NCBI GenBank assembly: GCA_963755705.1
Contig: CAVWKW010000001.1
Location: forward strand, 165,884 to 229,883
DNA length: 64,000 nt
Direction of reading: 5' to 3'
DNA from: an uncultured delta proteobacterium
GTDB taxonomy: Bacteria; Desulfobacterota; Binatia; Binatales; Binataceae
Numbering within the stretch: position 1 is the first letter of the stretch; each line of letters starts with the position of its first letter. The notes beneath the pieces are model-generated. The model did no database searches. It had not been told where the DNA came from and was given only the letters and a program-made list of their open reading frames with translations. The position numbers and the translations under genes were made by a program. Of this stretch, positions 3,503 through 26,584 are shown in pieces.

Positions 3503-3533
3503 AAAAAAACTCCTGCGGCGCGTACCGCAGGAG
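3503..3533 (-). terminator. Rho-independent terminator (minus strand) after the eno-hypothetical genes
   Basis: Hairpin CTCCTGCGG-cgcgta-CCGCAGGAG preceded on + by AAAAAAA, which is a T-run on the minus strand. Confidence 0.6.
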
Positions 3534-3627
3534 TCATCGGCCGCTCGCTGAGAGCGGCAATTTTGGTGGACTCCACCACCTTCGAGATCAACCTAGCAGA
3601 GCGATCGGTTCCCCCGCCAGCTTTGAT

Positions 3628-3963: not shown

Positions 3964-4084
3964 GGAGGACCCCGCCCTGCAGGAGTCATTGGCGTGCCGA
4001 CCAGCAGCAGCGTTTCAGCGGACTCCACCGCGTTCCCGCGCATCGTCATGCGCGGGCGAATTTGCCATTTCCCGGCGCGGCAGC

Positions 4085-5386
<1,302 letters not shown>

Positions 5387-5460: not shown

Positions 5461-5469
5461 GTACTCGCG

Positions 5470-5560
5470 AACGGTGATGGGGTTCCACCGACAACCGCTC
5501 CCGCTTGAGTGAGCTGATGACCCCTACTGATGTTGAACATGGTAGGGGCTTTTCTTTTGA
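5470..5560 (+). promoter_or_regulatory. Fluoride riboswitch (crcB RNA motif) with terminator-type expression platform
   Basis: GGTGATGGGGTTCCACCGACAACCGCTCCCGCTTGAGTGAGCTGATGACCCCTACTG aligns with the T. petrophila fluoride aptamer GGGCGAUGAGGCCCGCCCAAACUGCCCUGAAAAGGGCUGAUGGCCUCUACUG. Shared elements are GAUGG, AACCGC and CUGAUG..CCUAC. The 3' CCCCTAC is re-used in the hairpin CCCCTAC-N14-GTAGGGG followed by CTTTTCTTTT. Confidence 0.85.
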
Positions 5561-5685: not shown

Positions 5686-6990
5686 ATGTTCACAGGCAGA
5701 GGTAAGCAGCTGACTCTCTTCGTGACCGAAACCGATCACTATCGCCATCAATCGTTGTACATGGCGATTATCGAGATGCTCCGACGCGAGGGATGCAGCG
5801 GCGCGACCGCCATCCGCGGGATCGCCGGGTTTGGGGCATCCAGCCTGATACATACTGCCGCAATTCTGAGGCTGTCATTGGATCAGCCGTTGATGATTAC
5901 TGTTGTGGACCGGGCCGAGCGAATCGAGCGAGTTCTGCAGCCGCTGCGCGAAATGGCCCCCGCCGCCTTGATCACCATTCTGGACGTGGAAGTTGTTCAA
6001 TCCGGGGCGCCCTTTAAGGAGGGTCTGCCCGACGTGAAGGTCGTCGAGGTAATGCGTCGCGAAGTTGCGACGGTGCATCCCGACAGTCCCGTTACAGAGG
6101 TCGTTGAGTTGCTTTTACAGAAGGATTTTACCGCCGTACCAGTCGTGGATGACGAGGGAAAGGTCGTCGGCATGGTCAGCGACAGCGATCTACTGACGCG
6201 CGGCGGCATGAACGTGACGATCAGTCTTAAGAAAGCGACCGATCTGGACTTCGTACGCGGGATTCATGAATCGCTGGAGAATCCGGCACGCAAAGTTTCA
6301 GAAGTCATGACACGCGAAGTAGTAACCGTCGATCCCGAAATGATTCTTGGCCGGGCCGCGCGAGTGATGGTGGAAAAGCACCTGAAGCGACTGCCGGTAG
6401 TCGACGACGCCGGCAAGCTCGTCGGAATCCTGGGCCGGCTCGATATTTTGAATACAATCGCCGCCGTTCATCTGCCCGAATGGCACCCGGAAGCCCGGAG
6501 CATCGGCGCACAAGCCACAGTTGGCGAGGTGATGACGCGTGAGGTTCCAGTCTTACACGAATCCGCAACCGTGGAAGAAATTTTTGAGCTGCTGGTCTCG
6601 TCCTCTCACAAACGGGTGGTCGTAGTCAACGCGAAAAGGCATGTGGTTGGAATCGTCGCTGATTCAGACCTGATATCGAAGGTGAGCCGTGAACATTGGC
6701 CGGGGCTGATGGAACTCCTGGTCTCGAAAGTCCCGATCGAAAGAATCAGCGGCGTCGCTCGAAAGCACGTCCAGCAACTGCGCGCGCGTTCAGCGAAAGA
6801 GCTGATGACGCGAGGCGTGATCACGGTCCGGGAGAAAATGCCCGTCGCCAGCGCTCTCGCGCTTTCAGCGGAAAAACGTGTAAAGCGCCTCCCCGTTGTG
6901 GACGCCGAAAATGAACTGGTCGGGATCGTCGGACGCACCGAAATGATGAGAGCGCTTCTGGCCGGCGGCGCGCCGACGAAAGGTTCGTAG
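5686..6990 (+). CDS. DUF190 (PII-like) N-terminal domain fused to four CBS domains; fluoride-riboswitch-associated protein
   Basis: N-terminal ~100 aa (LTLFVTETDHYRHQSLYMAIIEMLRREGCSGATAIRGIAGFG) is a DUF190-type domain, which commonly neighbours crcB. It is followed by repeated CBS units (VxEVMTREVxTV...). Immediately upstream of crcB. Confidence 0.8.
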   Translation: MFTGRGKQLTLFVTETDHYRHQSLYMAIIEMLRREGCSGATAIRGIAGFGASSLIHTAAILRLSLDQPLMITVVDRAERIERVLQPLREMAPAALITILDVEVVQSGAPFKEGLPDVKVVEVMRREVATVHPDSPVTEVVELLLQKDFTAVPVVDDEGKVVGMVSDSDLLTRGGMNVTISLKKATDLDFVRGIHESLENPARKVSEVMTREVVTVDPEMILGRAARVMVEKHLKRLPVVDDAGKLVGILGRLDILNTIAAVHLPEWHPEARSIGAQATVGEVMTREVPVLHESATVEEIFELLVSSSHKRVVVVNAKRHVVGIVADSDLISKVSREHWPGLMELLVSKVPIERISGVARKHVQQLRARSAKELMTRGVITVREKMPVASALALSAEKRVKRLPVVDAENELVGIVGRTEMMRALLAGGAPTKGS

Positions 6991-6991
6991 C

Positions 6992-7366
6992 GTGGAGAGA
7001 GTCCTTCTGGTGGGGTCTGGCGGAGCTATCGGATCGGTCACTCGCTATCTGGTTGGTGGATGGTTCGCTGCTCGTTTCGGAAGCGCTTTTCCCTATGGAA
7101 CTTATGTAATCAACGGTACCGCGAGCTTCATCATCGGTTTTTTCCTGGCGCTCGCTCAGGTGCGCGCAGGGATCGGTCCCTACTGGCGATTGTTTGTGGC
7201 GACCGGTTTCGTCGGCGGTTATTCCACCTTTTCGACCTTCGAATACGAGTCAATGAGACTGCTCCAGGATGGCGAGATGCTATATGGGATGCTCTACCTG
7301 ATCGGAAGTATGGTGACGGGTCTCGGAGGTGCTCTCGCGGGCATTGCACTTGGCGGTTGGATTTGA
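6992..7366 (+). CDS. crcB: Fluoride ion channel CrcB/Fluc
   Basis: 124 aa, four TM helices. GSGGAIGSVTRYLV...YGTYVINGTASFIIGFF and GGYSTFSTF motifs are typical of CrcB. Directly downstream of the riboswitch-controlled gene. Confidence 0.85.
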   Translation: MERVLLVGSGGAIGSVTRYLVGGWFAARFGSAFPYGTYVINGTASFIIGFFLALAQVRAGIGPYWRLFVATGFVGGYSTFSTFEYESMRLLQDGEMLYGMLYLIGSMVTGLGGALAGIALGGWI

Positions 7367-7369
7367 GTT

Positions 7370-7398
7370 GACTGCAACGAATCCCTTGCTAGACTTCT
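7370..7398 (+). promoter_or_regulatory. Candidate promoter for riboswitch 2 (TTGACT-16-TAGACT)
   Basis: TTGACT at 7370-7375. TAGACT begins 16 nt downstream and lies about 7 nt before the riboswitch. Confidence 0.3.
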
Positions 7399-7407
7399 TC
7401 GAGCAGA

Positions 7408-7500
7408 GTTGGTGATGGGGTTCACCGCTACAACCGCCCTTTCCTGAGCTGGGCTGATGACCCCTACCGAGGTGTAAGCCGGTAGGGGTTGGCTTTCTCA
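7408..7500 (+). promoter_or_regulatory. Second fluoride riboswitch (crcB motif) with terminator-type expression platform
   Basis: GGTGATGGGGTTCACCGCTACAACCGCCCTTTCCTGAGCTGGGCTGATGACCCCTACC is a near-copy of the riboswitch-1 aptamer core. It is followed by the hairpin CCCCTACC-N12-GGTAGGGG and TTGGCTTTCTC. Confidence 0.85.
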
Positions 7501-7593: not shown

Positions 7594-8547
7594 ATGATGG
7601 CGCGTTCGATCGGGTTCAACCTGCTTCAAGTGCTGTTCGTTGTCGCACTGGCCCCGCTGGTCTCGGGCGTGTTGTCGCGGCTTAAGGAGATCGTTCAATC
7701 GCGGCGCGGTCCCAGCGTTCTTCAGCCCTATCGCGACCTACGAAAGCTGTTCAACAAAGACGAAGTTGTGTCCGAGTATGCTTCCTGGGTTTTTCGGGTG
7801 ACTCCTTACGTTGTTTTTGTTGCGCCGATCTTCGTAACCACGCTGATTCCGGTGCTCACCAGCTATCCGCTCTTTTTCGCTTTCATGGGCGACATGCTGG
7901 GAGCCGGTTTCGTGCTGGCGCTAGGCGGTTTCTTTGCCACGCTTGCGGCGGTTGATACTGCCAATCCCTACGGCCCGATGGGCGCCAGTCGAACCCGGAT
8001 GGTTGGCTTCCTGGCGGAACCCGTTTTCATGATAGTTTTTTTTACAGTCTCATTCGTGGCCGGCTCGACAATCCCTTACGTCGTTCAGCAGCACTGGGTG
8101 ACGCCGTTTTCGAATTTTCTTGCACCTTCGCACGTGCTGTTGGTGATCGCGTTCATCATGCTCATCATCGCCGAGGCTGGCCGGATTCCGGTGGACAATC
8201 CGACTGGCCATTTCGAACTCGCGATGATCGACGAGTCGAAGAGTCTCGAGTACTCGGGCACCGGTATGGCGCTGATGAAATGGGGCGGGCAGATGAAGCT
8301 GCTGGTGCTGATGTGCATCCTGCTCAACGTATTGGTAACGCCATGGGGACTTGCCATCGGCCAGAACACTGCCGAGGTCCTGCTGGCGGCACCGCTGGTG
8401 CTCTTCAAAGTAGCGATTTTTATACTGGTGGTGGTAGTGATCGAATCCTCACTCTCGAAATTGCGGCTCTTTCGCGTCAGTGAATTTCTGGGCGCGGCCT
8501 TCGTAACCTCGGTGGTAGCAATGATCACCGGGCTACTGAGCTTTTAG
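7594..8547 (+). CDS. Ehr/Hyf-type complex membrane subunit, NuoH/HycD-like (EhrB-like)
   Basis: 317 aa polytopic. LQPYRDLRKLFNKDEV corresponds to the NuoH QPxADxxKLxxKE signature. Confidence 0.8.
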   Translation: MMARSIGFNLLQVLFVVALAPLVSGVLSRLKEIVQSRRGPSVLQPYRDLRKLFNKDEVVSEYASWVFRVTPYVVFVAPIFVTTLIPVLTSYPLFFAFMGDMLGAGFVLALGGFFATLAAVDTANPYGPMGASRTRMVGFLAEPVFMIVFFTVSFVAGSTIPYVVQQHWVTPFSNFLAPSHVLLVIAFIMLIIAEAGRIPVDNPTGHFELAMIDESKSLEYSGTGMALMKWGGQMKLLVLMCILLNVLVTPWGLAIGQNTAEVLLAAPLVLFKVAIFILVVVVIESSLSKLRLFRVSEFLGAAFVTSVVAMITGLLSF

Positions 8548-8559
8548 CCAAAGACTCCA

Positions 8560-9240
8560 ATGGCGAATTACTACGCATTCATGAGCTCGCTGAATGGCCT
8601 GGCCGCGGGACTGTTCCTGATGAGTTCGTTCGGGCTCGCGGCGACGCGCCAGATGCAGGGATGCCAGCGATTCTATATTACTCAGTCTTTGTGCCTGGTG
8701 GTGTCGGCGCTGTTGCTCGGCCTCGGTTTGCACGCACCCGACCTGTTGGCGGTCGCCGCGCTTGACGTGGTGGTAAAGCCGATTGTAATTCCACGGCTGC
8801 TCCGACGCATGGTGCCTGAAGCCATTTTCAGAAGACGCGAGATCGATCAGGTATTGAATATTCCCAGCTCGCTGCTGATCGCGCTCGCGTTGACGCTGCT
8901 GGCCTATTTTCTTAGTGGATATCTGCCACCGGCGGCCGGCAGTTTGGCAAGAATCAACCTTCCTATTGGCCTCGCGGGGATATTCATAGGCATTTACACG
9001 CTCACGGTTCGGCGCGAGGCGGTGCCTCAACTGATTGGCATCTTTGGCATCGAGAATGGCGCCTTGCTTTGTGGCTTCGCGATTGCGCCGACGCTGCCAC
9101 TGGTAATCGAGATGGTCTTCCCGTTCGATATGCTGATCATCGCGCTGGTTATCGGAATCCTCACTCGAATGACGCATGAACGGGTCGGAACGACCGAGGT
9201 GGGTGGCTTCAGGACTCTGCGAGAAGGTTCCGGGAAATGA
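8560..9240 (+). CDS. Ehr/Hyf-type small membrane subunit, HyfE-like (EhrC-like)
   Basis: 226-aa hydrophobic protein in the position and of the size of HyfE. No catalytic motifs expected. Confidence 0.6.
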   Translation: MANYYAFMSSLNGLAAGLFLMSSFGLAATRQMQGCQRFYITQSLCLVVSALLLGLGLHAPDLLAVAALDVVVKPIVIPRLLRRMVPEAIFRRREIDQVLNIPSSLLIALALTLLAYFLSGYLPPAAGSLARINLPIGLAGIFIGIYTLTVRREAVPQLIGIFGIENGALLCGFAIAPTLPLVIEMVFPFDMLIIALVIGILTRMTHERVGTTEVGGFRTLREGSGK

Positions 9241-10685
9241 TCCTCTTCGTGATTCTCGCGCTTCCGCTGATTGCCGCGTCAATATCGGCAATCCCGCTCG
9301 GTCGCCGCGTCGCTCCTGCGGTTACGCTTGCGTCGTGTGTGGCAGTACTGGAGTTGACGGTCGCGGCAGCGCTGCGCGTCGTCGCGGGAGAATCGGTGGT
9401 TGCGATACGTAACTGGATCGCCATTGACGGACTAAGCACGTTGGTATTGTTGCTGGTCGCGACGGTGGGAAGTACCGCGGCGCTCTTTTCGTGGGGCTAC
9501 ATCGCTCGGGAAAAGAATTCACGCCATCTGCGCCGCTATTATGCCAATTACAATTTGTTTGTGTTCGCGATGCTCTCGGTGCCCATGCTTATCGAGCCGA
9601 ACCTGGTGTGGACCGGAGTGGAGTTGACCACGATTCTTTCCGTTTACCTGGTCGCATTCGAAAATACTGGCGAAGCTCTGGAAGCCGCGTGGAAGTACTC
9701 AGTGCTCACGATTATGGGGGGAGCGATAGCTCTGCTCGGATTTCTGGCCCTGTATGCCGCGACGCGGGGCAGGTACCCGGGAGTGCCTTACACCTGGCAT
9801 ACGCTGATCGTGCTTGCGCCCAAAGTTTCGCCGGGTGTGCTTGAGACCGCGTTCGTCTTGATTCTCGTTGGGTTTGGCGCCAAGGCCGGTTTGGTTCCCC
9901 TGCACACGTGGCTGCCCGACGCGCACAGCCAGGCGCCGAGCCCGATATGCGCGCTGCTCTCAGGGATCAAGACCACGGTGATTTTATACGTGATATTGCG
10001 TCTCATTCCGGTGTTGAACGCTTCTGGAAAGATCGATATCGACGCTTGGGCGATGGTCGTAGGTTTGTTCTCGGTAGGTATTGCCGCATTTCTGATTATT
10101 CAGGTGACTGACTATAAGCGGCTGTTCGCATTCTCCACGGTCGAGCATATGGGAATCATTTTGGCCGCCGCTGGGATTGGTGGTGCCGCCGGTCATTATG
10201 GCGCCGTATATCAAATACTAAACCATGCGCTGACCAAATCGTTTTGTTTTTTTGCGGCCGGCGCGACCTTACTCGCAGTGGACACGCGGCAAATCGCGGA
10301 AGTGCGGGGATTGATACGGACCTCGCCCCCCGCGGGTGTGGCTCTGCTGTTCGGCGGAATCGCGATCGCCGGTGCACCACCGCTGGCGGTCTTTTTGAGT
10401 GAGTTCTCGATCCTGCGCTCAGGAATCGCTGCGCAACACTATCTTGCAACCGGTCTGCTCGCTGGATTCGTAATAGTTGCATTCTTCGGGATTCTTTATC
10501 ACCTCAACCGGATGGTTTTCGGGAAACCGCAATCGACCACCGAAAATATAGTACCGGTAAAACTGCCGGTGAGCTGTATCCTGACGCTAATTCTGGCCGC
10601 GATACCGATCATCATTCTCGGAGTCTATATGCCGCAGTCGCTGCATACTCTTCTTCGGATGGCTGCCGACGGCCTGACGAGGTGA
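9237..10685 (+). CDS. Ehr/Hyf-type antiporter-like subunit, NuoN/NuoM/HyfF-like (EhrD-like)
   Basis: 482 aa, about 14 TM. Mrp/NuoLMN-family pattern (WTGVELTTILSVYLVAFE..., GFGAKAGLVPLHTWLPDAHSQAP). Confidence 0.8.
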   Translation: MILFVILALPLIAASISAIPLGRRVAPAVTLASCVAVLELTVAAALRVVAGESVVAIRNWIAIDGLSTLVLLLVATVGSTAALFSWGYIAREKNSRHLRRYYANYNLFVFAMLSVPMLIEPNLVWTGVELTTILSVYLVAFENTGEALEAAWKYSVLTIMGGAIALLGFLALYAATRGRYPGVPYTWHTLIVLAPKVSPGVLETAFVLILVGFGAKAGLVPLHTWLPDAHSQAPSPICALLSGIKTTVILYVILRLIPVLNASGKIDIDAWAMVVGLFSVGIAAFLIIQVTDYKRLFAFSTVEHMGIILAAAGIGGAAGHYGAVYQILNHALTKSFCFFAAGATLLAVDTRQIAEVRGLIRTSPPAGVALLFGGIAIAGAPPLAVFLSEFSILRSGIAAQHYLATGLLAGFVIVAFFGILYHLNRMVFGKPQSTTENIVPVKLPVSCILTLILAAIPIIILGVYMPQSLHTLLRMAADGLTR

Positions 10686-10688
10686 TCG

Positions 10689-12278
10689 ATGCCCCCGGGA
10701 CTCCGACAAGTACTCGAAGAGGCTACCGCGCGATGGAACAGCAACGTTCGCCCGAGCCCCGAAGACGGCGCCGAATCGGCTTATCGGTTGGAGTGCGAGC
10801 CTCGTGCACTGCCGGAGATTTGCGACTGGCTATTCTCTGAGATGAATTACAGCTTCGGCGGCCTTGTCGTCGAGCAGCTAGCGCAATGGGAGCTGCGCTA
10901 TTTATTTTACGGGGGCTCGGACGCAGGCTGGCTGCACGTTCTTACTCATCTATCCCCTTCCGAAGATCGAGTACCCAGCATCAGCAGGCTGGTGCATGCC
11001 GCCGACTGGCACGAACGCGAGGTCGAGGATCTGTTCGGGCTGTTCTTCGAGGGGCACCCTCGCCTTGGTGACTTCGTGCTTCACGACGACGTTTGGCATG
11101 AGGGCATCGCTCCGATGCGTAAAAGCTTCGTTGCAAGCGAGCCCGTACTTCATCGTGAGCCTGACCTGACGTGGAAGCCCCGCCAGATCGTCGAGGAAGC
11201 GGGCGCTTTTTCGATGCCAGTAGGGCCCATCTATTCGGCGGCCACTGGGCCGGTGCACTTTCAGCTTGAAACCGTGGGTGAGGACGTGATTCGCGCGCAG
11301 CCGCGTCTCTTCTACGCCTATCGAGGGCTGGAAAAAATCGCGGAGGGACGTCAGGCCGAAGACGTGCTGCTGATCGCGGAGCGGATCAGCGGAACTTCGG
11401 CATTCGCTCATTCACTCGCGGTTTGTCAGTCCGTCGAGCACGTCAGCCAAATCGAAGTGCCGCCGCGAGGCCGCGCGCTGAGAATATTTGCCGCCGAGCT
11501 CGAACGCCTGCGGCATCATGCGTCGGTGATCGAAGGTATCTGTGAATCCACCGCCCTTGCTGTGGCTGCTGCGCAGGCCGCGATCCTCGAAGAAGACTTG
11601 CTCCGGATTTCCGGCGCTCTTACCGGCCATCGATATCTGTTCGGCCTGAGCACCTTCGGCGGCGTGACGATAGACCTTGATGGCGCAGCCTGCCGGGGAG
11701 CGGCGGCGCAGGTGCGAGATATAGGTGAAAAGCTCTCAACTCTGGAGCGGATGCTTAGCACCTCGAGCAGCTTCCTCGACCGCCTCGAGCAGGTTGGTGA
11801 TGTCTCGGCGAACGATGCCCGCGAGTTTGGGCTGGTCGGACCTATCGCTCGCGCCTCCGGCGTTTCGCGGGATCTGAGGAAGGCGCAGCCATATTCCGGC
11901 TATGAGGCGGTTGAGTTTGAAGTTCCACGTGAAACCGAGGGGGATGGCTTCGCGCGGCTGCGCCTGTTCTTTCGGGAGGCTACGCAATCAGTGCGGATTA
12001 TTTCGAAGATCGCCGAACGGATTCCAGATGGCCGGTTTCGCGCGCCGGAAGTCTGGTTGCGGCCCGGTGCCGCGCTGGGCTGGGTTGAAGCGCCACGCGG
12101 AGCCGCTCTGCATTGGCTTCGTTTGCGCGAGGACGGCGTGGTCGATCGATACCGAATTATCACGCCGTCGTTCGCTAACTGGCACGGGTTCAGGCTTGCG
12201 GCCGAAAGATTTGCGTTCCAGGACTTTCCAATAATCCTCGCGACGTTCGCGCTCTCAGTTCACGAGAACGATCGCTAG
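10689..12278 (+). CDS. Ehr-type large subunit (NuoC-NuoD/HycE-like fusion) lacking the [NiFe]-binding cysteines
   Basis: NuoD/HycE core (FSMPVGPIYSAATGPVHFQLETVGE). At the L1 motif position the sequence is ERISGTSAFAHS, i.e. RxCGxCxxxH with both Cys replaced by Ser. The C-terminus ...ALSVHENDR has no DPCxxCxxH motif and resembles the NuoD end. Confidence 0.8.
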   Translation: MPPGLRQVLEEATARWNSNVRPSPEDGAESAYRLECEPRALPEICDWLFSEMNYSFGGLVVEQLAQWELRYLFYGGSDAGWLHVLTHLSPSEDRVPSISRLVHAADWHEREVEDLFGLFFEGHPRLGDFVLHDDVWHEGIAPMRKSFVASEPVLHREPDLTWKPRQIVEEAGAFSMPVGPIYSAATGPVHFQLETVGEDVIRAQPRLFYAYRGLEKIAEGRQAEDVLLIAERISGTSAFAHSLAVCQSVEHVSQIEVPPRGRALRIFAAELERLRHHASVIEGICESTALAVAAAQAAILEEDLLRISGALTGHRYLFGLSTFGGVTIDLDGAACRGAAAQVRDIGEKLSTLERMLSTSSSFLDRLEQVGDVSANDAREFGLVGPIARASGVSRDLRKAQPYSGYEAVEFEVPRETEGDGFARLRLFFREATQSVRIISKIAERIPDGRFRAPEVWLRPGAALGWVEAPRGAALHWLRLREDGVVDRYRIITPSFANWHGFRLAAERFAFQDFPIILATFALSVHENDR

Positions 12279-12293
12279 ACGGCGGGAACAGCC

Positions 12294-13064
12294 ATGAGCC
12301 AATGGTTGATCAAGGGTCTCAGAACCGGCATCAAGAGCACGCCCTATCCGCGCGCCACGGAAACTGCGGCTGGAACGTCCCCAGGCCTGCCCGCCGCTAC
12401 CAGACTCGCCGCGGAGCAGGCGCAATCGGTGGTGGCTCGGTGTCCTACAGGTGCGCTTGAACTCGCGCCGGCTGGTGTGGACGTGAACGTGCGCCAGTGT
12501 ATCCACTGCATGCGGTGCGCGCGTGATACGGACAGACCGATGGATTGGGAACGCGGCTACGAGTGGGCGAGCGAAGTCTCGGCGGTTGATGACCGAACCC
12601 GGCACTTCGGTCCCGCGTTTGCTCGGTCGGTTCAGATTCTCGTGGTCGATACAGGCGACTGCGGTGCGTGCCTGAATGAAGTCCGACAGCTCAACAATCC
12701 CTACTACAACCTGCATCGCCTCGGATTCTTTCTCACTCCAACTCCGCGGCATGCGGACGTGTTGCTCGTAGTCGGAGCGCTGACCGAGCACATGCGCGCG
12801 CCCCTGCTCAAGGCTTACAACGCGATGCCTGGTCCAAAGCGCATCGTTGCCGTAGGCGCGTGCGCGTTATCGGGAGGAATTTTTGGCCGGAGCTTCATGT
12901 GCGCAGGCGGAGTAAGCGAACTGCTCCCGGTCGATGTCGAGGTGCCGGGTAATCCGCCGCCGCCACTAGCTATCCTGCACGGACTATTGGTTGCGGTGGG
13001 CCGTAAAACCTCTGCCAGTTTGCATCGCGCGGTAGGTGGCTCCACGGGGAAAGCGTCGGGATGA
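12294..13064 (+). CDS. Ehr-type small subunit (NuoB/HycG-like) with degenerate N-terminal ferredoxin-like region
   Basis: DTGDCGACLNE (CxxC..E), VGACALSGG (GxCxxxGG) and VPGNPPPP (where CPGCPP/VPGCPP is expected; Cys replaced by Asn). The N-terminus has a single CIHCMRC (CxxCxxC) plus CPTG remnant. Confidence 0.75.
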   Translation: MSQWLIKGLRTGIKSTPYPRATETAAGTSPGLPAATRLAAEQAQSVVARCPTGALELAPAGVDVNVRQCIHCMRCARDTDRPMDWERGYEWASEVSAVDDRTRHFGPAFARSVQILVVDTGDCGACLNEVRQLNNPYYNLHRLGFFLTPTPRHADVLLVVGALTEHMRAPLLKAYNAMPGPKRIVAVGACALSGGIFGRSFMCAGGVSELLPVDVEVPGNPPPPLAILHGLLVAVGRKTSASLHRAVGGSTGKASG

Positions 13065-15211
13065 CCGCGATGGGCTTGCTGCTGATCATCATCCTGGGGT
13101 TGTGCGTCGTCGGGATATTGTTGCCGCTGGCGGTTGATGAACGATTAACGCCGGCGATTGTGGGATGGCTCGGAGCGTGCGCGGCCGCCGTCTTACTCTG
13201 CTTCAGCGGAGCCTCTCTGTTTGCCGACGTGCCGTTTCACTCGACGTTGTGGAGCATTCCCTCGCTGGCGACGCTCACGCTCTCGCTCGATCGGCTGTCG
13301 GCGCTGTTTCTTTTTGTCTCGGGCTTGATCCTCCTTCCCGGATCGATTTTCGCCGCCGGCAATCTCCGTCGATACGCGGGCCGGTACAGTCTCGGGGCCT
13401 TTAGCGTTCCATATTTCGCGCTCTTCGCAACGCTGGTGTTGATTCCTTTATCGGCCGACGCGGTCTCCTTCCTGATGCTGTGGGAGTCGATGTCGATCCT
13501 GATCTATCTGCTGGTGAACTACGAAGACGAAGATGAGGAGCATATCCGGTCGGGATTCCTGATGCTCGCGGTGGGCGAGGCCGGCACGCTCCTCATCGCG
13601 CTCGCGTTCATCGTGCTCGCCAAAAATGGCTCGCTCGAGTTCGCCGCGATGAAGGATGGCTCAGGTACGTTGACCGAGTACACGCGATGGGCCGTTTTTC
13701 TGCTCGCGTTTTTTGGCTTCGGCGTGAAGGCCGGTCTCATCCCGGTGAACTTTTGGCTCCCGCAGGCTTATGCCGCTGCGCCGGACGCCTTCGTTCCGGT
13801 GCTGGCTGGAGCGACCTTGAACCTCGGAATTTACGGAATCGTCAGAGTCAATGGCGATCTGCTGCCGGTTGCGATGATCGGCCCCGGCATCGTCGCGCTG
13901 ATAATAGGCAGTGTTACCGCATTGCTCGGGATACTTTACGCGACAACCCAGAACGATCTTAAAACTATGCTCGCGCACAGCTCGATCGAGAACGCGGGCA
14001 TCATCACGGCGGCTCTTGGCGCGGGGTTCATCTTCGTGGCGTCGAATCGCCCATCGCTCGCAGCGATTGCGTTCGCGGCGGCCTTCTACCACACAGCGAA
14101 TCACTCGATCTATAAGGCCCTGCTGTTCTTCGCGACCGGTGCGGTTGATTCAAATACCGGGACGCGAAGCATCGACCGGCTCGGAGGCTTGATAAAGGCG
14201 ATGCCTCTCACCGCATTGTTCTTTCTGGTTGGCGCGCTGTCGATCGCGGCGCTGCCGCCGTTCAACGGATTCGTCAGCGAATGGCTCACGCTGCAGACGA
14301 TGCTGCAAAGCGCGGGGCTCGCTTCGACTGGCGTGAAAATCGTCTTTGCGCTTTGTGGCGCGATCCTCGCCCTGACCGCAGCGCTCGCGGTGACCTGCTT
14401 CGTGAAGGCGTTTGCGATGAGCTTCCTCGGAATGCCGCGCTCCGAATCTGCCGCGCAGAGTCGGCCTGCGCGAGCCTCTGCGACCCTTCCGATGGCGTTC
14501 CTCGCGGTGCTCTGCCTCGTGCTCGGAGTGACTCCGACCTATGTGATTCCGGTGCTCGACGGAGCGATAGCGCCGATCGCGGGGCAAGCTCGCGCTGCCG
14601 ACGCACTGGTGCCGCCATTCTTCGCCGGCAACGTTCATCACGGCGAGTTGCCCGCATCCTTCGTCGCGGACTTTCACGCGATCGGCGCGCAAGTTGGACA
14701 GAGTATCTTGCCGGGACGCGGGCTGGTCGTGATGCATCGCGGCGGCAAAGCCAATCCGATCGTGTTCGCAATGTCCACTTCGTACATGGCGGTGGTCTTA
14801 GCGTTGATGCTGCTGATGACTTACGTTGTTTTTCGAGTAGTGATTGCTCGAAGCCGCGCCATCGAGCGGCGCGCGGTCTGGGATGGAGGTATCCGGAGGT
14901 TGCTCCCGGAAATGACCTACACTGGTACGGGATTCTCGAATCCGGTGCGAGTTATCTTTGAGGCGATCTTCAGGCCTACCACCGTGGAGGACACCAGAGA
15001 GACGGTAGGAAAGCATTTCCGGGCGGCGATTCGCCGCACGCGCGGAGAAAATCACGTACTCGACCGTCTGATTCTCAATCCGATCGCGGATGCCGCCTTG
15101 TGGGTATCAAAAGGTTTCGCGCGGATGCATCACGGCATTCTCAACGCGTACGTTCTCTACGGGCTCGGCGCGCTAATCCTGGCGCTTTTGATCGCGAGAT
15201 TTTCCTCATGA
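13061..15211 (+). CDS. Ehr/Hyf-type antiporter-like subunit, NuoL/HyfB-like (EhrA-like)
   Basis: 716 aa, many TM. NuoL/MrpA-like motifs (GVKAGLIPVNFWLPQAYAAAPDAFVPVLAGATL). Start overlaps the small-subunit stop. Confidence 0.8.
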   Translation: MTAMGLLLIIILGLCVVGILLPLAVDERLTPAIVGWLGACAAAVLLCFSGASLFADVPFHSTLWSIPSLATLTLSLDRLSALFLFVSGLILLPGSIFAAGNLRRYAGRYSLGAFSVPYFALFATLVLIPLSADAVSFLMLWESMSILIYLLVNYEDEDEEHIRSGFLMLAVGEAGTLLIALAFIVLAKNGSLEFAAMKDGSGTLTEYTRWAVFLLAFFGFGVKAGLIPVNFWLPQAYAAAPDAFVPVLAGATLNLGIYGIVRVNGDLLPVAMIGPGIVALIIGSVTALLGILYATTQNDLKTMLAHSSIENAGIITAALGAGFIFVASNRPSLAAIAFAAAFYHTANHSIYKALLFFATGAVDSNTGTRSIDRLGGLIKAMPLTALFFLVGALSIAALPPFNGFVSEWLTLQTMLQSAGLASTGVKIVFALCGAILALTAALAVTCFVKAFAMSFLGMPRSESAAQSRPARASATLPMAFLAVLCLVLGVTPTYVIPVLDGAIAPIAGQARAADALVPPFFAGNVHHGELPASFVADFHAIGAQVGQSILPGRGLVVMHRGGKANPIVFAMSTSYMAVVLALMLLMTYVVFRVVIARSRAIERRAVWDGGIRRLLPEMTYTGTGFSNPVRVIFEAIFRPTTVEDTRETVGKHFRAAIRRTRGENHVLDRLILNPIADAALWVSKGFARMHHGILNAYVLYGLGALILALLIARFSS

Positions 15212-15384
15212 AGCTTGACCGGCGTTAAACGGAGTCTTAATTTTGAACTGTAGGCGGTGGAGTCCGCCGATATCTGCCATCCGGCCAATGACTCCTGCAA
15301 GCGGGTAGAGACCCGTGGCAGGAGTTTCCACTCCAGAAGCTGGGTCTCGAGACCGCTCCGACGATTGCTGATCGGAGGCCGCAA

Positions 15385-16212
15385 GTGCTCGAGCGCCTGA
15401 CAAAAAATTTCCGGGAACTACTCAAGAAGTTCGAGGGCGCGTCGTGCCCGCTGTGTTCTGTACTAAAATGGCGGGAACAACAGCGGCTTGAGCGGCTGCG
15501 CGCAAGCGGCGTTTCGACGCGTGTCCTGTGCGGCCCGCATCTCGAAATGGCTCTGGCCGCGCTTGCTATCCGGACGGCAAGGGCGCGACTGACTCGTAGC
15601 GCGATCGAATCCGTCCTCGCCGGCCGTCCCGATTGCGAAGTGTGCTCATGGCTGTGCCAAATCGAGCTTCGGCTAGTGCGAGCGATTCGTCGTTTGGACG
15701 GCGGGATGCGCTTCCAGAAGGCTCTCGAATCGGCGCCGCTGTTCTGCCGCAAGCATGCGAGGGCGATCGGTGAACAAAATGCAGCGGTTAATTTTGCACA
15801 CGTCCAGAAGGCGAGGCTGCTTCGCTTGCGTAACGCGCTGGCTCAAGCAGAGTTGCGCAACAGCGCGGAGTTGGAATCGCTGATATCCAAGACGCTTGCG
15901 TACTTGGCTGCCCCAGTCGAGCAAGAGCCGGCATCAGAAGTCCTCGATTCCTCCGATAGCACGGAGAGTGACGCCGCGGAATTCGGGCGATGGGAGGATG
16001 CGCGTCAGCTCAAACATCTATCTGACCTCGAGAGCGAAGCGGCAAGCCTGCGCTATCGCAACGCAACGCTCGCCGAGGAAAACCGCAGACTCAAGCTCGC
16101 GCATGCTGCGGGCGAGGCTTTGAGGCGCGACCTCGAACACGATCGAGAGCAGTTTATTGCCGCGGCAAAAGCACAGGATCCAAATTCCGTAAAATCTTCA
16201 AACCGGAATTGA
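15385..16212 (+). CDS. Hypothetical protein with two C2CH zinc-ribbon-like modules and a C-terminal coiled-coil/acidic tail (GTG start)
   Basis: GGAGG RBS 6 nt before GTG at 15385. Modules CPLC-x24-LCGPH and CEVC-x33-FCRKH. C-terminal heptad-like ESEAASLRYRNATLAEENRRLKLAHAAGEALRRDLE. Confidence 0.55.
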   Translation: MLERLTKNFRELLKKFEGASCPLCSVLKWREQQRLERLRASGVSTRVLCGPHLEMALAALAIRTARARLTRSAIESVLAGRPDCEVCSWLCQIELRLVRAIRRLDGGMRFQKALESAPLFCRKHARAIGEQNAAVNFAHVQKARLLRLRNALAQAELRNSAELESLISKTLAYLAAPVEQEPASEVLDSSDSTESDAAEFGRWEDARQLKHLSDLESEAASLRYRNATLAEENRRLKLAHAAGEALRRDLEHDREQFIAAAKAQDPNSVKSSNRN

Positions 16213-16926
16213 ATGGAGCGAATCATCCCCATGCGAATCTGCATCATCTCTGACCTGCATGCGAACCTCGAGGCTCTTGCAGCGTTGCCGAGCGACTATG
16301 ACGAGTTATGGGTATTGGGCGACCTGGTCGATTATGGTCCCGATCCGGCTGAAACGATCGAATTCGTCCGATCTCACGCGTTGACCGTGATTCGAGGCAA
16401 CCATGACAACGCGGTCGGATTCGGAACGGACTGCGGATGCTCTCCCCGATTCACCGCGATGGCGGAGGCAACACGCAAGTACACTACCTCAGTCTTGAGT
16501 GCGAGCGACAAGCAGTTTCTCCGCGACCTCCCGACGTGCGCGTGCCGCCAACTAGACGGTCGAGTATTTTTTCTCTGCCACGCGACCCCGTCGGATCTTT
16601 TGTACGAATACCGTCCGCCAGACTCTCCTCTGTGGGCCCGAGATGAGGAGTCCAGTTCAGGAGCGGACGTTCTGCTGGCGGGCCATACGCACCTGCCGTT
16701 CGTACGCGTCTTCGGCGAGCGCGTCGTAGCTAATCCGGGAAGTCTCGGACAATCGAAAGTTGGAGGTGCGCGTGCCCGCTATGCGGTCTGGCAGGATGAC
16801 CATATCGAGCTAAAGGACTACGAATATCCCGTCAATAAAACTATACACAAAATTCTGACACTGCCATTGCCCGAGGAAGTAAAGCACGATCTCGTCTGTG
16901 TGCTTCGCACGGGGACGGCGCCGTGA
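16213..16926 (+). CDS. Calcineurin-like metallophosphoesterase (YfcE/MJ0936/Vps29-fold family)
   Basis: Motifs ISDLHAN, VLGDLVDYGPDP, RGNHDN and GHTH, in canonical order. Confidence 0.8.
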   Translation: MERIIPMRICIISDLHANLEALAALPSDYDELWVLGDLVDYGPDPAETIEFVRSHALTVIRGNHDNAVGFGTDCGCSPRFTAMAEATRKYTTSVLSASDKQFLRDLPTCACRQLDGRVFFLCHATPSDLLYEYRPPDSPLWARDEESSSGADVLLAGHTHLPFVRVFGERVVANPGSLGQSKVGGARARYAVWQDDHIELKDYEYPVNKTIHKILTLPLPEEVKHDLVCVLRTGTAP

Positions 16927-17918
16927 GTACTAATAGTCATCGAGACGCCGCGCCGGCGCCGATTGCGATCACGGCGGACTCCGCAAAACTCACTGCTCTG
17001 GGACGTCACCTGCGATCTCTGCACGACGGGGACGGCGCGGTGATTGAGGCAATCGGCATCGGTGCTCCAGCGGTTCCGATCCTGCGGGCACTTCTGTCTG
17101 AGCGAGACTTCACGGGGATTTTCGAACCGCGGATGCGGGCCGTTCAGGCGCTGGCCGCGCTCAGAGCCACGAGCGAATTGAAAGAGTACGTTCGGGGGTG
17201 GCAATCGGCCTCAGACCCCGTCGAGCGATTCGGAGACGAGGCAGTGCTGGGGACGGCCGCCAGATTTTTGGGCGCGACTAAAGACGAAGACGCTTATCAG
17301 ATCTTGATCGCGGTGGCCCGAAAGCATCCGGTGCCTGGCGTCATCGAAGCATTGGGAAGCTGTGGCCGCAAGGAATCGATTCCGATCGTAATCAAAGCCC
17401 TTGCCGACGACGTCAGCCGTAGCGCCGCGGAACAGGCGTTAAGAATCCTCGGAGAGGTCGGCGCACCTGCACTCATCGAAGCCGCCCTGCGACCCGTAGC
17501 GAACTTTTGGGGCAGTGAAATTCCATCCAGTGTGCGGCGGCGCCGCAGCGCACTGATGCTGCTGTTCGAATTTGGCGTCACCCGCGACATTTGGGACCGC
17601 GTCCGCGGGTTGGCAGCGGATTCAGACGACGAGATCGCGGTCCACGCGTGCGCGATTGGCCTGACCGCCGGGACCTATCCCGACCAGCGCGATTGCGCGC
17701 GCCGAATGGTGGCACTGCTGCGTCAGGTGGCGTGGCCGCTTCATCGTGAAGTCGAGGACTGTCTGATAGTTCATTTCGCAATCGCGCGCGAGTTCGTCGA
17801 ACAGGCGATCAAAAGCCCGATGGACCTGATCGCGAATGACTTCGCGCGTGCCCGCTTCAAACGATCCCTGCGCCGGATCGCGGCGCGAGCATCAACCAGC
17901 CAGGCGCCCAGGAGTTGA
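16923..17918 (+). CDS. HEAT/PBS-lyase-type alpha-solenoid repeat protein
   Basis: Repeated ~30-aa units (AVxALGxIGxPAVPxLxxLLxD...) typical of HEAT-like repeats. Start overlaps the upstream stop. Confidence 0.7.
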   Translation: MSTNSHRDAAPAPIAITADSAKLTALGRHLRSLHDGDGAVIEAIGIGAPAVPILRALLSERDFTGIFEPRMRAVQALAALRATSELKEYVRGWQSASDPVERFGDEAVLGTAARFLGATKDEDAYQILIAVARKHPVPGVIEALGSCGRKESIPIVIKALADDVSRSAAEQALRILGEVGAPALIEAALRPVANFWGSEIPSSVRRRRSALMLLFEFGVTRDIWDRVRGLAADSDDEIAVHACAIGLTAGTYPDQRDCARRMVALLRQVAWPLHREVEDCLIVHFAIAREFVEQAIKSPMDLIANDFARARFKRSLRRIAARASTSQAPRS

Positions 17919-20380
17919 CCTCGATGCCGCAAGCAGCGTCGCAGATCTCGGATATCGCGAGCGATGCTGTCCGCCGCTATGACGATCTCAAGCTTGAGAT
18001 CGCGGCGATCGGACAGACCGCGATGCTCACCTGCACCAAAGATAAAGATGAGGAAGGTGAGCGAGCGTTCCAGTCGGTGCTGGCGCGGCTCGCTGAAGAT
18101 CACTTCAATCTCGCCGTTATCGGTCCCTTCAGTCGCGGTAAGAGCAGCCTGATGAACGCGATCCTCGGTTTTCAGGGCCTGCCCACCGGCCTCCTGCCGC
18201 ACACCTCCGTCATCACGACCGTCAGTTACGCGCCACACGAACGCGTTCTCGTTCGGTGCGCGGGATGGCCGCTTCCGCAGGAGGTTCGACTCGATCAACT
18301 CGCTGAGTATGTAACCGAACGGGGAAATCCCGGCAATCGGCGGGGCGTGGCGCTCGCGGAGATCCAGTTGCCGGCCGAGATCCTTCGCCACGGCCTCTAC
18401 TTTATCGATACTCCGGGCGTTGGTTCCGCGATCGTCGCCAACACAAAAACCACGGAACGGTTCCTTCCCGAGATCGATGCCGCGGTCTTCGTCTCCAGTT
18501 TCGATTTCGCCGTAAGCGAGGCGGATATCGAGTTCTTGCGTACCGTTACCGCGACGGTGGGCAAGGTATTTTTCGTCCTGAACAAACTCGACCTCACGTC
18601 GAAGTCCGAGGCCGAAGAAGTCATCAGATTCGTCCGCGACCGGCTCGACCGCGAACCGGGTATTGGGCGCTACTCTTTGTTCGCTGTGTCGGCCAAGCGC
18701 GCGCTCGAAGCAAAACTACATGGAGATTCGGGTGCGCTAGCCCAGTCCGGGCTGATTGAACTGGAGGATGCGCTGGCGGCATTCACGGCCTCGGACAAGA
18801 CGCACCAATTGTCCGTGCGCGTAATGGACCGCCTGGTCGCTCTGCTGCAACGCGAACGCGCACACGCCGGTTTTGCTGTAGCTTCAAAGCGATCTTCTTC
18901 GCAGGTCTCCGAAGCACTCGTCGGGTTCGATGAAAAGGCCGCCGTCCTCAAAGTGCGATGCGCGGCACTCGTAAACCGCCTTGGAGCGCTGGGCAATGAT
19001 GCGCTGCGCGCCTCTCAACGGCGCCTCGACTTCGCGTTCACCAGCCTCAAGCAAAGCGCGACTTTGAAATTCGCGCCGAACTTTCTTACCGGCAGGATAT
19101 TTTCCAGGCCGAATACGCTCGATACTTTCACGCGCAACGTGTCCGTGTTTTGTGCCGGCGCGCTCACGCGCGATTTACAAGTTTACGAGGCCGCACTGAA
19201 CGAGCATTTGGACCGGACAGCCGGTCCGGTCCGCACCGAACTTCTCGCTCTACCCTATGAAGTCTTCGACATCGCGATGAATGATGAGGGCAACACTCGC
19301 GAGCTTTCAAAGCTCTCTGCGGAAGAGCCCGAGGCAGCGCCGCCTTCTGTGGGGCTCGGGGGGATCGCGCGCATCGAGTGGAGACCGCGATTGCCGTGGT
19401 GGATATACGTGGCTCCCCGGCGCTGGTTTCCCGCGGCGATGAAGAGACAGTTTGCCGTCGCGCTCGGCGACCTGCTCGCCCAATACCGGTCCCGTGTCGA
19501 TGCGATGATCCGCGTCGTCCTGAAGGAATATGCAGAGAAACTGAATCGCGAAACTGAGAAGGCAATCGACGTTCAAGTGGCTCGCGTGAAAAAACTTCTC
19601 GCATCGGGAGGAATCGAAAAAAGTCGTCAGGTGTTCGAGACGCTTCTGGAACGAGCTAGAGAGCTAAGACGACGACTTGGTGACAACCCTGACCGTGGAT
19701 CACTGCCTGAGAATAGCGCCGCGGCTTCCGTCAGGGTGCGAGCGTGTCCTGTCTGCCGCACAGTTCTGCGCGCAGTCTTCGACTACTTAAGCAAGCTGCA
19801 ATATGAGTTGAGCATCGACGCTGACGCTCAACACCGACACGCGAAGAACGGCGGCTTTTGTTCGATGCACACGTGGATTTACGCCAGCATGACCTCGCCG
19901 GTTGCGATCGCGCGGGCCTATCCCGCGCTGCTAGACGCGCTTGCGGCTCGTCTGGAACGTGCTGCGGGAGAGGCGGTATCGATCGCGGAGCTGGCTCACG
20001 ACATTGACGATCTGGCGCCGTCGAAAGAGACTTGCGGAGCGTGCGCAATCGCCCGTGACGGAACGGAGCAGTCGGTCGCGGAGGTCCTTCGGCGCCTCGA
20101 TTCAGACGGGCGCAGCGAGGTTCCGGCCTTATGCCTGCCGCATTTGGCGATCGCACTTCACCTCGGATCGGAATTGAACGGCGCCCGTTTGCTGACCTCA
20201 CGATGCGCGAGCGCGCTGCTACGGGCTGCCGAAGACATGCGCCATCACGCGCTGAAGCACGACGCGATCCGGCGCGGCCTTATGTCGGGGGATGAGCGCG
20301 ATGCGCATCACACCGGCCTCAGAAAATTAACCGGCGACATGCTGCTGACACTCCCGCCTCGAGGGGACGACCGCCTCTAA
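17915..20380 (+). CDS. Dynamin-like GTPase (bacterial DLP family) with C-terminal double C2CH zinc modules
   Basis: G1 GPFSRGKSS, G3 DTPG and G4 NKLD in dynamin order, followed by a long helical region. The C-terminus carries CPVC-x35-FCSMH and CGAC-x28-LCLPH. Confidence 0.8.
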   Translation: MTSMPQAASQISDIASDAVRRYDDLKLEIAAIGQTAMLTCTKDKDEEGERAFQSVLARLAEDHFNLAVIGPFSRGKSSLMNAILGFQGLPTGLLPHTSVITTVSYAPHERVLVRCAGWPLPQEVRLDQLAEYVTERGNPGNRRGVALAEIQLPAEILRHGLYFIDTPGVGSAIVANTKTTERFLPEIDAAVFVSSFDFAVSEADIEFLRTVTATVGKVFFVLNKLDLTSKSEAEEVIRFVRDRLDREPGIGRYSLFAVSAKRALEAKLHGDSGALAQSGLIELEDALAAFTASDKTHQLSVRVMDRLVALLQRERAHAGFAVASKRSSSQVSEALVGFDEKAAVLKVRCAALVNRLGALGNDALRASQRRLDFAFTSLKQSATLKFAPNFLTGRIFSRPNTLDTFTRNVSVFCAGALTRDLQVYEAALNEHLDRTAGPVRTELLALPYEVFDIAMNDEGNTRELSKLSAEEPEAAPPSVGLGGIARIEWRPRLPWWIYVAPRRWFPAAMKRQFAVALGDLLAQYRSRVDAMIRVVLKEYAEKLNRETEKAIDVQVARVKKLLASGGIEKSRQVFETLLERARELRRRLGDNPDRGSLPENSAAASVRVRACPVCRTVLRAVFDYLSKLQYELSIDADAQHRHAKNGGFCSMHTWIYASMTSPVAIARAYPALLDALAARLERAAGEAVSIAELAHDIDDLAPSKETCGACAIARDGTEQSVAEVLRRLDSDGRSEVPALCLPHLAIALHLGSELNGARLLTSRCASALLRAAEDMRHHALKHDAIRRGLMSGDERDAHHTGLRKLTGDMLLTLPPRGDDRL

Positions 20381-20426
20381 GCGTCTGCAAGCCGCCTATG
20401 CAAATGCGGAACGAGATTACTCGCGA

Positions 20427-26581: not shown

Positions 26582-26584
26582 GCC

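Follow-up and report, generated by a model that had tools for sequence, protein, structure and literature searches.

The closest described relatives of the system analyzed here are the Ehr complexes (Ech-hydrogenase-related or energy-converting-hydrogenase-related; Coppi 2005), which were named in Geobacter, the name being extended by Marreiros et al. 2013 (as cited in PMC4758237, PMC6349859, and PMC7894505). The Ehr class has been known since 2005 without an assigned function; the literature holds its function to be unknown and leaves fluoride unmentioned (PMC12342949). Within the genus Nitrospira, which is reported to carry Ehr (PMC12342949), the respective operon was earlier called a hyfBCEFGI group 4 hydrogenase (PMC5596200). 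In a separate field, 'formate hydrogen lyase' is counted among the commonest genes linked to the crcB RNA, i.e., the fluoride riboswitch (PMC2864571, PMC11139923). In this study, a stretch of 64,000 nucleotides (nt) of contig CAVWKW010000001.1 from an uncultured bacterium of the Binataceae (further referred to as the window, at its full length) was analyzed, with a focus on the gene for the large subunit of an Ehr-type complex. This gene is one of six co-directional genes (7594-15211, + strand), which are preceded by a fluoride riboswitch; the riboswitch is the most informative fact about the operon and was missed by an earlier reading of the sequence (the original prediction). The fluoride-riboswitch link is nearly universal in the clade of this operon across more than ten phyla, and it is specific to this clade. 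We consider it reasonably probable that the protein is the large subunit of a six-subunit complex of the Ehr kind working as a fluoride-induced ion-translocating machine; the regulation is an observation and the mechanism is what we infer.

The large-subunit open reading frame (ORF; 10689-12278, + strand) starts with ATG and encodes 529 amino acids (aa). In a phmmer search against all PDB chains, E. coli HycE (7z0s_E) ranked first (E=1.7e-60), with NuoCD at about 1e-37 to 1e-41 and MbsL at 8.5e-24. The Pfam matches were Complex1_49kDa (E=3.6e-43) and NiFeSe_Hases (E=7e-14), and the NCBIfam NuoD model NF004739 was not reached (198.9 bits vs a cut-off of 360). For an AlphaFold model of the protein (predicted local distance difference test, pLDDT, 83; predicted template modelling score, pTM, 0.87), the best Foldseek match was again HycE 7z0s_E (template modelling score, TM, 0.91; 26% identity), followed by NuoCD, and nothing solved is closer. 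By homology and fold, the protein is therefore a relative of group 4 [NiFe]-hydrogenase large subunits that stands nearer to HycE than to NuoCD, and not between hydrogenases and NuoD, as had been proposed.

The segment RISGTSAFAH had been predicted to occupy the position of the hydrogenase L1 motif, and both alignments bear this out. The phmmer alignment of the window segment 'aerisgtsafahs' with HycE 'sdrvcgicgfahs' is gapless, and in a MAFFT alignment of the query and four homologues with E. coli HycE, HyfG, and NuoCD (from NC_000913), the same columns hold RISGTSAFAH in the window protein, RVCGICGFAH in HycE and HyfG, and RIEYLGGCVN in NuoCD. At the C-terminus, TFALSVHENDR, with which the window protein ends, is aligned with SLDPCYSCTDR plus 32 aa of HycE and HyfG and with the terminal SIDFVMSDVDR of NuoCD. 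In the alignment to HycE and HyfG, the window protein thus lacks the two Ni/Fe-ligating Cys of L1 (RxCGxCxxxH) as well as the two Cys of L2 ((D)PCxxCxx(H/R)). The protein terminates at the Arg equivalent to HycE R537, i.e., the maturation cleavage site of HycE, and the 32-aa extension that is cleaved from HycE and HyfG is absent; the NuoD-like C-terminus noticed earlier, ending in DR without an extension, is therefore real. Since ALSVHENDR matches HycE DPCYSCTDR residue for residue, the L2 Cys are gone, yet the register is kept. The statement that no DPCxxCxxH/R motif exists is correct as to the Cys and too strong as to the frame, which survives as LSxxExDR.

The family search scored 8000 candidates, 2575 of which were proteins with E<=1e-3. 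The best 120 database homologues, 59-93% identical to the window protein, are named after Candidatus Binataceae, Verrucomicrobiae, and others, with the Joint Genome Institute (JGI) label 'formate hydrogenlyase subunit 5', and because of its many database homologues the gene is no chance ORF. Relatives were present in at least 486 species (scan with one genome per species), and the 80 best of them cover more than ten phyla. None of the 120 database proteins or of the 80 species-level loci has the four NiFe Cys. Across 81 species-level sequences, the position of the first L1 Cys (234) is A42/S31/C6/N2, that of the L1 Gly (235) A56/G25, and that of the second L1 Cys (237) T49/S31/C1, while R232, H241, and E231 are each found in 81/81. 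Of the two L1 Cys positions, the second alone is under constraint, a hydroxyl residue (Thr/Ser) being required there. In L2, with the family consensus LS-x-x-E-x-DR, the first Cys position (523) is S79/C1 in 80 sequences and the second (526) is Glu in 80/80. The original prediction that both L1 Cys are conservatively replaced by Ser with the Gly kept describes the window correctly and the family incorrectly, the Ser at the first position being a feature of Binatia; given S79/C1 vs T49/S31/C1, a Cys-to-Ser exchange is family-wide only at the first L2 position and, loosely, at the second L1 position. The window form RISGTS...SVHENDR is accordingly the Binatia variant of a majority form RFAATTAFAH...SVAENDR. 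As judged from these columns, Ser523 and Glu526 are the true signature residues of the pocket.

The Glu of the HycE segment 'SDEPGHF', used by hydrogenases in proton transfer, is retained as E187 in 66/81 sequences. In the Binatia lineage it is replaced by Gly/Ala (nt 11247-11249), together with replacement of A525 by His/Pro/Gln (nt 12261-12263), which looks like an acid/base group that may have moved. The covariation of E187 and A525 was rejected as independent evidence, as the exchange is confined to Binatia and represents one lineage event. Outside the NiFe positions, C285 is conserved in 121/121 sequences (it is also Cys in HycE and HyfG), C246 in 116/121, and C36, C45, and C335 in about 105/121. 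A C-x3-C-x8-C pattern was also observed in the NuoC-like domain (aa 32/36/45), where aa 32 is Tyr in the window and Cys in 77/121 homologues.

As all four Ni/Fe-binding Cys and the C-terminal maturation extension have been lost, the complex is, judging by its sequence, not a hydrogenase, in agreement with the prediction that no NiFe centre can be bound. A genuine [NiFe] hydrogenase or formate hydrogenlyase is what the names 'formate hydrogenlyase subunit 5' (JGI) and 'hyf-like group 4 hydrogenase' imply, in line with the NiFeSe_Hases match and with literature labels (PMC2864571, PMC5596200, PMC8752731). With none of the four Cys ligands and no extension, this identity is next to impossible; Cys elsewhere in the protein, which would have counted against the original prediction had they been able to substitute, were checked, and C246, C285, and C335 could not rebuild the site, being too few and off the ligand positions. 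Furthermore, ORF clustering in 79 loci revealed no cluster of formate dehydrogenase (fdhF), Hyp, HycI, or NuoEFG recurring in at least 7 of them, and neither Hyp nor HycI occurred among the window ORFs scanned.

The former NiFe pocket had also been suggested to serve quinone. A ferredoxin (or other donor):quinone oxidoreductase, i.e., a minimal relative of complex I or NDH-1 whose non-canonical quinone site would occupy the place of the former NiFe centre, would agree with the presence of a NuoH/NuoB/NuoD-like module, with the NuoD-like C-terminus, and with the fact that many hosts are aerobic soil bacteria. However, the canonical ligands give no support to it: the NuoCD quinone Tyr (RIEYLGG; equivalent of Nqo4 Y87) corresponds to G235 of the window protein, in a column of Gly/Ala, and the ligand His (second His of GPNHPSAHG; H38 equivalent) to T186. 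Every NCBIfam NuoD/NuoH model stays below its cut-off, NuoA, NuoJ, and NuoI are absent, and fluoride-specific control of such an enzyme would have no obvious reason. We regard this alternative as improbable; re-use of the pocket for a ligand other than quinone is favoured by its residues being invariant, as far as alignments can tell.

The remaining subunits of the operon conform to the Ehr-type complex that was originally proposed: a NuoB-like small subunit, a NuoH-like subunit, and antiporter-like subunits accompany the large subunit without NiFe Cys. In the NuoH/HyfC-like subunit, about 30 charged residues are invariant in 74 orthologues. In 76 orthologues, E129, K216, and E389 of the HyfF-like subunit (equivalents of NuoM E144, K234, and E407) and E142, K223, K352, and E407 of the HyfB-like subunit are invariant; in both antiporter-like subunits, the Glu of transmembrane helix (TM) 5, the Lys of TM7, and the Glu of TM12 correspond in alignments to those of NuoM, MbhH, and HycC, and they are invariant as well. 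The make-up of a complex I operon was not found, since there are only H-, K-like (inside the HyfE-like protein), M/N-, L-, B-, and CD-like genes, without NuoA, NuoJ, NuoI, or NuoEFG. For all six subunits, every NCBIfam model scores below its curated cut-off; their public labels comprise 'formate hydrogenlyase subunit 5', 'Ni,Fe-hydrogenase III small subunit', 'NADH-quinone oxidoreductase subunit C', and 'hypothetical protein'.

The small subunit is a fusion. Its aa 1-105 are collinear with E. coli HycF 1-112 from residue 1 (hhalign probability 95%, E=3.3e-8; HyfH 83%), a kinship that needed profile comparison, as a single-sequence PDB search with the N-terminal domain gave only weak matches to DsrA/B ferredoxin domains. 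The first HycF CxxCxxCxxxCP motif is cut to its final 'CP' (C50), and the second retains CxxCxxC (C69, C72, C75) without the CP. In 2x[4Fe-4S] ferredoxins, such a leftover combination (C50 with C69/C72/C75) binds one cluster. The HycG/NuoB-like part (aa 110-240) shows 40% identity to 7z0s_G, and Foldseek matched this half only. Of the proximal-cluster ligands, C123, C126, and C190 are present in an alignment with HycG, HyfI, and NuoB, and the fourth (HycG/NuoB 'PGCPP') is Asn220 (PGNPPPP), a position which is N102/H12/Q4/D2/S1 in 121 homologues. C50, C69, C75, C123, C126, and C190 are invariant both in the 121 and in 79 sequences, and C72 is conserved in 115/121 and 77/79, respectively.

The gene order H-E-F-L-S-B (i.e., NuoH/HyfC-, HyfE-, HyfF-like, large, small, and HyfB-like subunits) is the same in all 80 species-level loci, whose hosts belong to Binatia, Verrucomicrobiota, Planctomycetota, Nitrospira, NC10, Acidobacteriota, Gammaproteobacteria, Actinomycetes, and other groups. 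A syntenic orthologous operon with 59% identity is present in a metagenome-assembled genome of Nitrospira japonica (locus L022 in our numbering of loci), which may correspond to the Ehr reported for that genus. The loss of catalytic residues could also be expected in a decaying pseudo-operon without function, an explanation that can practically be dismissed, as all six ORFs are intact and the operon is kept at 55-93% identity, in strict synteny, in more than ten phyla, with many invariant residues.

Upstream of the operon, Rfam cmscan identified a fluoride riboswitch aptamer (crcB motif, RF01734) with 51.5 bits (gathering score 34, E=2.3e-11), matching the full model and lying 120 nt from the operon start codon. 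A hairpin whose 5' arm lies within the 3' end of the aptamer is present in the minimum-energy fold; terminators overlapping the motif are the published layout of the crcB RNA (PMC2864571), and the putative expression platform is arranged alike here. A sigma-70-like promoter candidate with the TG element precedes the aptamer, and it is weak alone (one such site in 4.3 kb vs 1.5 on average in shuffles).

The linkage was examined in the orthologous loci, 71 of the 80 being testable, i.e., having the first operon gene together with 400 nt or more of upstream sequence. A covariance model derived from the four window riboswitches was too narrow and missed every gammaproteobacterial copy; it matched on the + strand within 700 nt upstream in 49/71 loci. 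Rfam applied to 21 of the model-negative loci certified a riboswitch within 250 nt in 14 of them, which gives 63/71 loci with a direct link. In seven further loci the riboswitch stands ahead of a co-directional upstream gene, namely crcB (L024, L030, L049, L080), enolase (L040), a cytidylate-kinase-like gene (L016), or a dynamin-like GTPase gene (L074), and in L037 a riboswitch-like match located 3.3 kb upstream was without Rfam confirmation at the gathering score, so that the total is 70-71/71. Spot checks of model matches with Rfam confirmed 7/7, which came from different phyla and included a match in Nitrospira japonica.

The neighbourhoods point in the same direction. In ORF clustering of 79 loci, the recurrent non-core neighbours were a dynamin-like GTPase (25+5), enolase (25), metallophosphoesterase (16), CrcB (14+), DUF190 (12), a major facilitator superfamily (MFS) transporter (11), and a MutS-domain protein (9); by tblastn, an enolase homologue adjoins the operon in 28/80 loci. 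The neighbours crcB, enolase, MutS-like, and DUF190 are essentially the published fluoride regulon (PMC11139923, PMC2864571), and pyrophosphatase is present in the window as well.

To place the clade among its relatives, a profile search of 1.84 billion representatives was performed, which resulted in 13,154 superfamily members. The best 150 of them, in which L1 and L2 were read, fall into three groups, i.e., (i) the clade of the window, with Ser..Glu in L2; (ii) a NiFe-less class 2, with R(I/V)SGD... in L1 and NLSY(S/A)GND(L/R) in L2; and (iii) true hydrogenases, having RxCGxC with ELCYxCxDR, or with DPCYSCTDR plus the extension. The class-2 sample consisted of 82 metagenomic loci (L084, L086, L088-L167; 0.85 Mb), 36 of which contain the operon start; a few loci among them are real hydrogenases (ELCYSCTDR). 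The class-2 gene order is B-H-E-F-L-S (hyfB-C-E-F-G-I), and the small subunit retains PGCPP in 46/63. An improved riboswitch model, rebuilt from 147 hits, recovered all 38 Rfam-verified hits in 22 class-1 loci as a positive control and found no riboswitch in the 82 class-2 loci (best E=0.086), that is, 0/36 in the informative ones; neither crcB nor enolase was found nearby in any of the 82. As 70-71/71 loci stand against 0/36, the fluoride link belongs to the clade of the window and not to Ehr at large, and it coincides with two signatures, namely a Glu that replaces the last NiFe Cys and the missing fourth Cys of the cluster.

Based on these results, the fluoride-induced ion-translocating machine may be pictured as follows. 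Fluoride would bind the aptamer, the overlapping hairpin could then not form, and the six genes would be transcribed. Hydrogen fluoride (HF) leaking in and F- leaving via CrcB would amount to a proton leak draining the membrane potential that drives F- out (the physiology of this cycle is reviewed in PMC11139923), and the complex would move H+ or Na+, restoring membrane potential and cytoplasmic pH. Electrons would probably pass from a soluble donor, such as ferredoxin, through the cluster of the HycF-like domain and the three-Cys NuoB-like cluster toward an acceptor in the remodelled pocket, the proposed lining of which is T/S237, S523, E526, H241, R232, and usually E187.

Several points weigh against this proposal. 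The functional claim rests on regulation and conservation, and the 80 loci used throughout are best matches, not a random draw from the clade. A gene for the electron donor or acceptor is absent from the operon and, by the ORF clustering of 79 loci, from its neighbourhood. The proximal cluster may be altered, [3Fe-4S], or absent, because its fourth ligand is N/H/Q/D/S and not Cys, and, as to the TM8 Lys, the HyfF-like subunit has it two residues away and the HyfB-like one has Asn instead. The hairpin in the leader has a poor U-tract and was not called by the terminator scan. Finally, the riboswitch-linked genes have been read in the literature as 'formate hydrogen lyase', in terms of anaerobic formate oxidation or of a fluoride-sensitive enzyme (PMC11139923, PMC8752731).

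The alternative that competes most strongly is an Mrp-like cation/proton antiporter working independently of redox, in which Na+ (or K+)/H+ exchange would correct the cytoplasmic pH during fluoride stress and the NuoB/C/D cap with its Fe-S clusters would be a structural or regulatory relic. In its favour, NiFe ligands, quinone ligands, and the fourth proximal-cluster Cys are all gone and a donor/acceptor module was found in none of the 79 neighbourhoods; moreover, the antiporter-like subunits are nearest to those of Mbh, Mrp, and Nuo, and Na+/H+ antiporters are the second commonest class of riboswitch-linked genes (PMC11139923). We nevertheless regard it as unlikely, for the six invariant Fe-S Cys (with C72 in 115/121) and the invariance or near-invariance of S523, E526, H241, and R232 at 55-60% identity across phyla exceed what a relic needs, although structural clusters can be conserved too. 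A further, highly improbable variant of the fluoride-induced machine is that the pocket and the three-Cys cluster handle fluoride itself and the complex extrudes it by proton-motive force or redox. The antiporter-like subunits would in that case deliver protons, turning bound F- into membrane-permeant HF, with a pocket made of the invariant Ser, Glu, and His, the Thr/Ser, and usually the second Glu, and with a cluster having a free iron or an Asn/His/Gln neighbour. If true, cytoplasmic F- could be pushed below the equilibrium of CrcB channels, which would make it a third kind of exporter and a new chemistry of the complex I superfamily.

The operon is a part of a larger fluoride island, as four RF01734 riboswitches were found in the window at Rfam gathering thresholds. 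The coordinates of the features are summarized in Table 1.

Table 1. Features of the Ehr-type operon, its leader, and the fluoride island, with positions in the window
Feature	Position	Strand	Basis
Fluoride riboswitch before inorganic pyrophosphatase (2889-3422, -)	3521..3589	-	Rfam 39 bits; Pfam
Enolase, fluoride-sensitive enzyme	4085..5371	-	Pfam
Fluoride riboswitch before DUF190-CBS (5686-6990) and crcB (6992-7366)	5464..5533	+	Rfam 54.1 bits; Pfam, NCBIfam
Sigma-70-like promoter candidate TTGACT-16-TAGACT, with TG	7368..7395	+	Consensus scan
Fluoride riboswitch aptamer (crcB motif, RF01734) before the Ehr-like operon	7402..7473	+	Rfam cmscan
Putative expression platform: hairpin ACCCCTACCG...CGGTAGGGGT (7460-7489), U-rich tail (7490-7499)	7460..7499	+	RNA minimum-energy fold
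NuoH/HyfC-like membrane subunit	7594..8547	+	Pfam NADHdh E=2.7e-32
HyfE-like membrane subunit, NuoK-like C-terminal part	8560..9240	+	NCBIfam 'hydrogenase 4 membrane subunit' E=1.3e-16, below curated cut-off; weak Pfam Oxidored_q2
HyfF/NuoM-like antiporter-like subunit	9237..10685	+	Pfam Proton_antipo_M E=4.8e-47
Large subunit, fused NuoC-like (aa 35-151) and NuoD/HycE-like (aa 176-529), without NiFe ligands	10689..12278	+	phmmer, Pfam, MAFFT
L1 remnant RISGTSAFAH, aa 232-241 (HycE C241 to S234, C244 to S237)	11382..11411	+	phmmer, MAFFT
L2 remnant ALSVHENDR (HycE C531 to S523, C534 to E526)	12249..12275	+	MAFFT
Small subunit, HycF/NuoI-like and HycG/NuoB-like fusion	12294..13064	+	hhalign, alignment, Foldseek
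HyfB/HycC/NuoL-like antiporter-like subunit	13061..15211	+	NCBIfam 'hydrogenase 4 subunit B' E=3.5e-154, below cut-off; PDB HycC E=5.9e-55
Fluoride riboswitch before five-gene operon 15385-21635	15244..15304	+	Rfam 35.1 bits; Pfam

The riboswitch of the pyrophosphatase gene has a canonical overlapping terminator at 3535-3508 (terminator scan). The operon behind the rightmost riboswitch encodes a 275-aa protein without a Pfam match, a metallophosphoesterase, a HEAT-repeat protein, an 821-aa dynamin-family GTPase, and an MFS transporter. A possible fifth fluoride riboswitch (3973-4040, - strand) scores 30 bits with our own model but is missing from the Rfam output at the gathering score; it is located between enolase, which it follows, and a 111-aa ORF without a Pfam match (3628-3963, - strand), which it precedes. 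An IS1-like transposase ORF (1155-2099) borders the island on the left, and the right side (25061-31344) holds genes of a TrwB/TraD coupling protein, a TrwC relaxase, and a tyrosine integrase abutting tRNA-Sec (31253-31344). The guanine-cytosine content is 56-60% at 1-24 kb and 60-65% farther right in the window. An integrative mobilisable element may carry the fluoride island, and the presence of the operon in different phyla at about 60% identity would agree with this; the window was searched for another copy of the 3' end of tRNA-Sec, which would serve as an att site bounding a mobile element, and none was found.

In the orthologous loci, dynamin-like GTPases adjoin the Ehr operon in about 25-30 of 79 (e.g., L074 4862-6712, L077 4283-6112, and L033 9967-11694), and some of them immediately follow a riboswitch. 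We know of no described link between bacterial dynamins and fluoride. Other genes located directly behind fluoride riboswitches encode a tandem cytidylate-kinase-like protein (PF13189; L016 5640-6896), a HIT-family protein with DUF190 (L049 5625-6701), and a MutS-domain-V protein (L024 16091-17794; its family occurs in 9 loci).

Taken together, the data join two lines of research. Ehr has been an orphan branch of the complex I/hydrogenase superfamily since 2005, and its function was still given as unknown in a 2025 study of Nitrospirales genomes; since 2010-2012, 'formate hydrogen lyase' has been listed in the fluoride field as one of the genes most often controlled by the riboswitch. This riboswitch-linked 'hydrogenlyase' represents a separate Ehr clade without NiFe, distributed in more than ten phyla, with many members from acidic soils and peat. 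The linkage gives an orphan Ehr family a testable role in fluoride stress, corrects a widespread annotation, and offers a natural case of a complex-I-like machine with a repurposed catalytic pocket. No paper joining the Ehr and fluoride-riboswitch lines was found in the literature searched, the coverage of which is incomplete, so one may exist; complexes of this kind are known, and the clade as such, together with its signature and its obligatory control by fluoride, appears to have gone unrecognised.

Among the known systems, E. coli formate hydrogenlyase (Hyd-3, 7Z0S) and Hyf (Hyd-4) are the best sequence and fold match, sharing the fused NuoC+NuoD protein and Hyf-type membrane subunits. In contrast to them, the window complex is devoid of NiFe ligands, the cleaved extension, HycB, FdhF, HycH, HycI, and Hyp, what remains of HycF is a single-cluster domain joined to the HycG homologue, and the fourth proximal Cys is replaced. 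With complex I (NuoCD/NuoB/NuoH of NDH-1) it has in common the fold, the DR C-terminus, the loss of the NiFe site, and the canonical antiporter Glu/Lys residues, whereas the quinone Tyr/His, the tandem-Cys motif of NuoB, and NuoA/J/I/EFG are missing and the NCBIfam Nuo models stay below their cut-offs. Pyrococcus MBS/MBX and Mrp are also complex-I-like modular systems with homologous antiporter-like subunits, their NiFe site being degenerate (MBS) or absent (Mrp). MBS retains part of the Cys set and reduces polysulfide. Both are much more distant, as seen from MbsL (E=8.5e-24 vs 1.7e-60 for HycE) and from the lack of a NuoB/NuoD cap in Mrp.

The fluoride riboswitch regulon (Weinberg 2010, Baker 2012) shares with the window the RF01734 aptamer with its overlapping hairpin and the crcB, enolase, pyrophosphatase, MutS-like, and DUF190 neighbours; the hydrogenlyase label was taken at face value there, whereas genes of the window type cannot encode a hydrogenlyase. 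The closest counterparts are Ehr complexes (Geobacter sulfurreducens GSU0739-45; Marreiros 2013; Nitrospira hyfBCEFGI), with which the window complex shares homology to group 4 [NiFe] hydrogenases and a large subunit without NiFe Cys, and, as matched by description (Geobacter EhrA/C/L/S, Nitrospira hyfBCEFGI), NuoH-, HyfE-, HyfF-, and HyfB-like, large, and small subunits (PMC7894505, PMC4758237, PMC12342949, PMC5596200). Compared with class-2 Ehr, the clade of the window is set apart by LSxxExDR vs NLSY(S/A)GND(L/R), PGNPP vs PGCPP, the gene order H-E-F-L-S-B vs B-H-E-F-L-S, and a fluoride riboswitch in 70-71/71 vs 0/36 loci.

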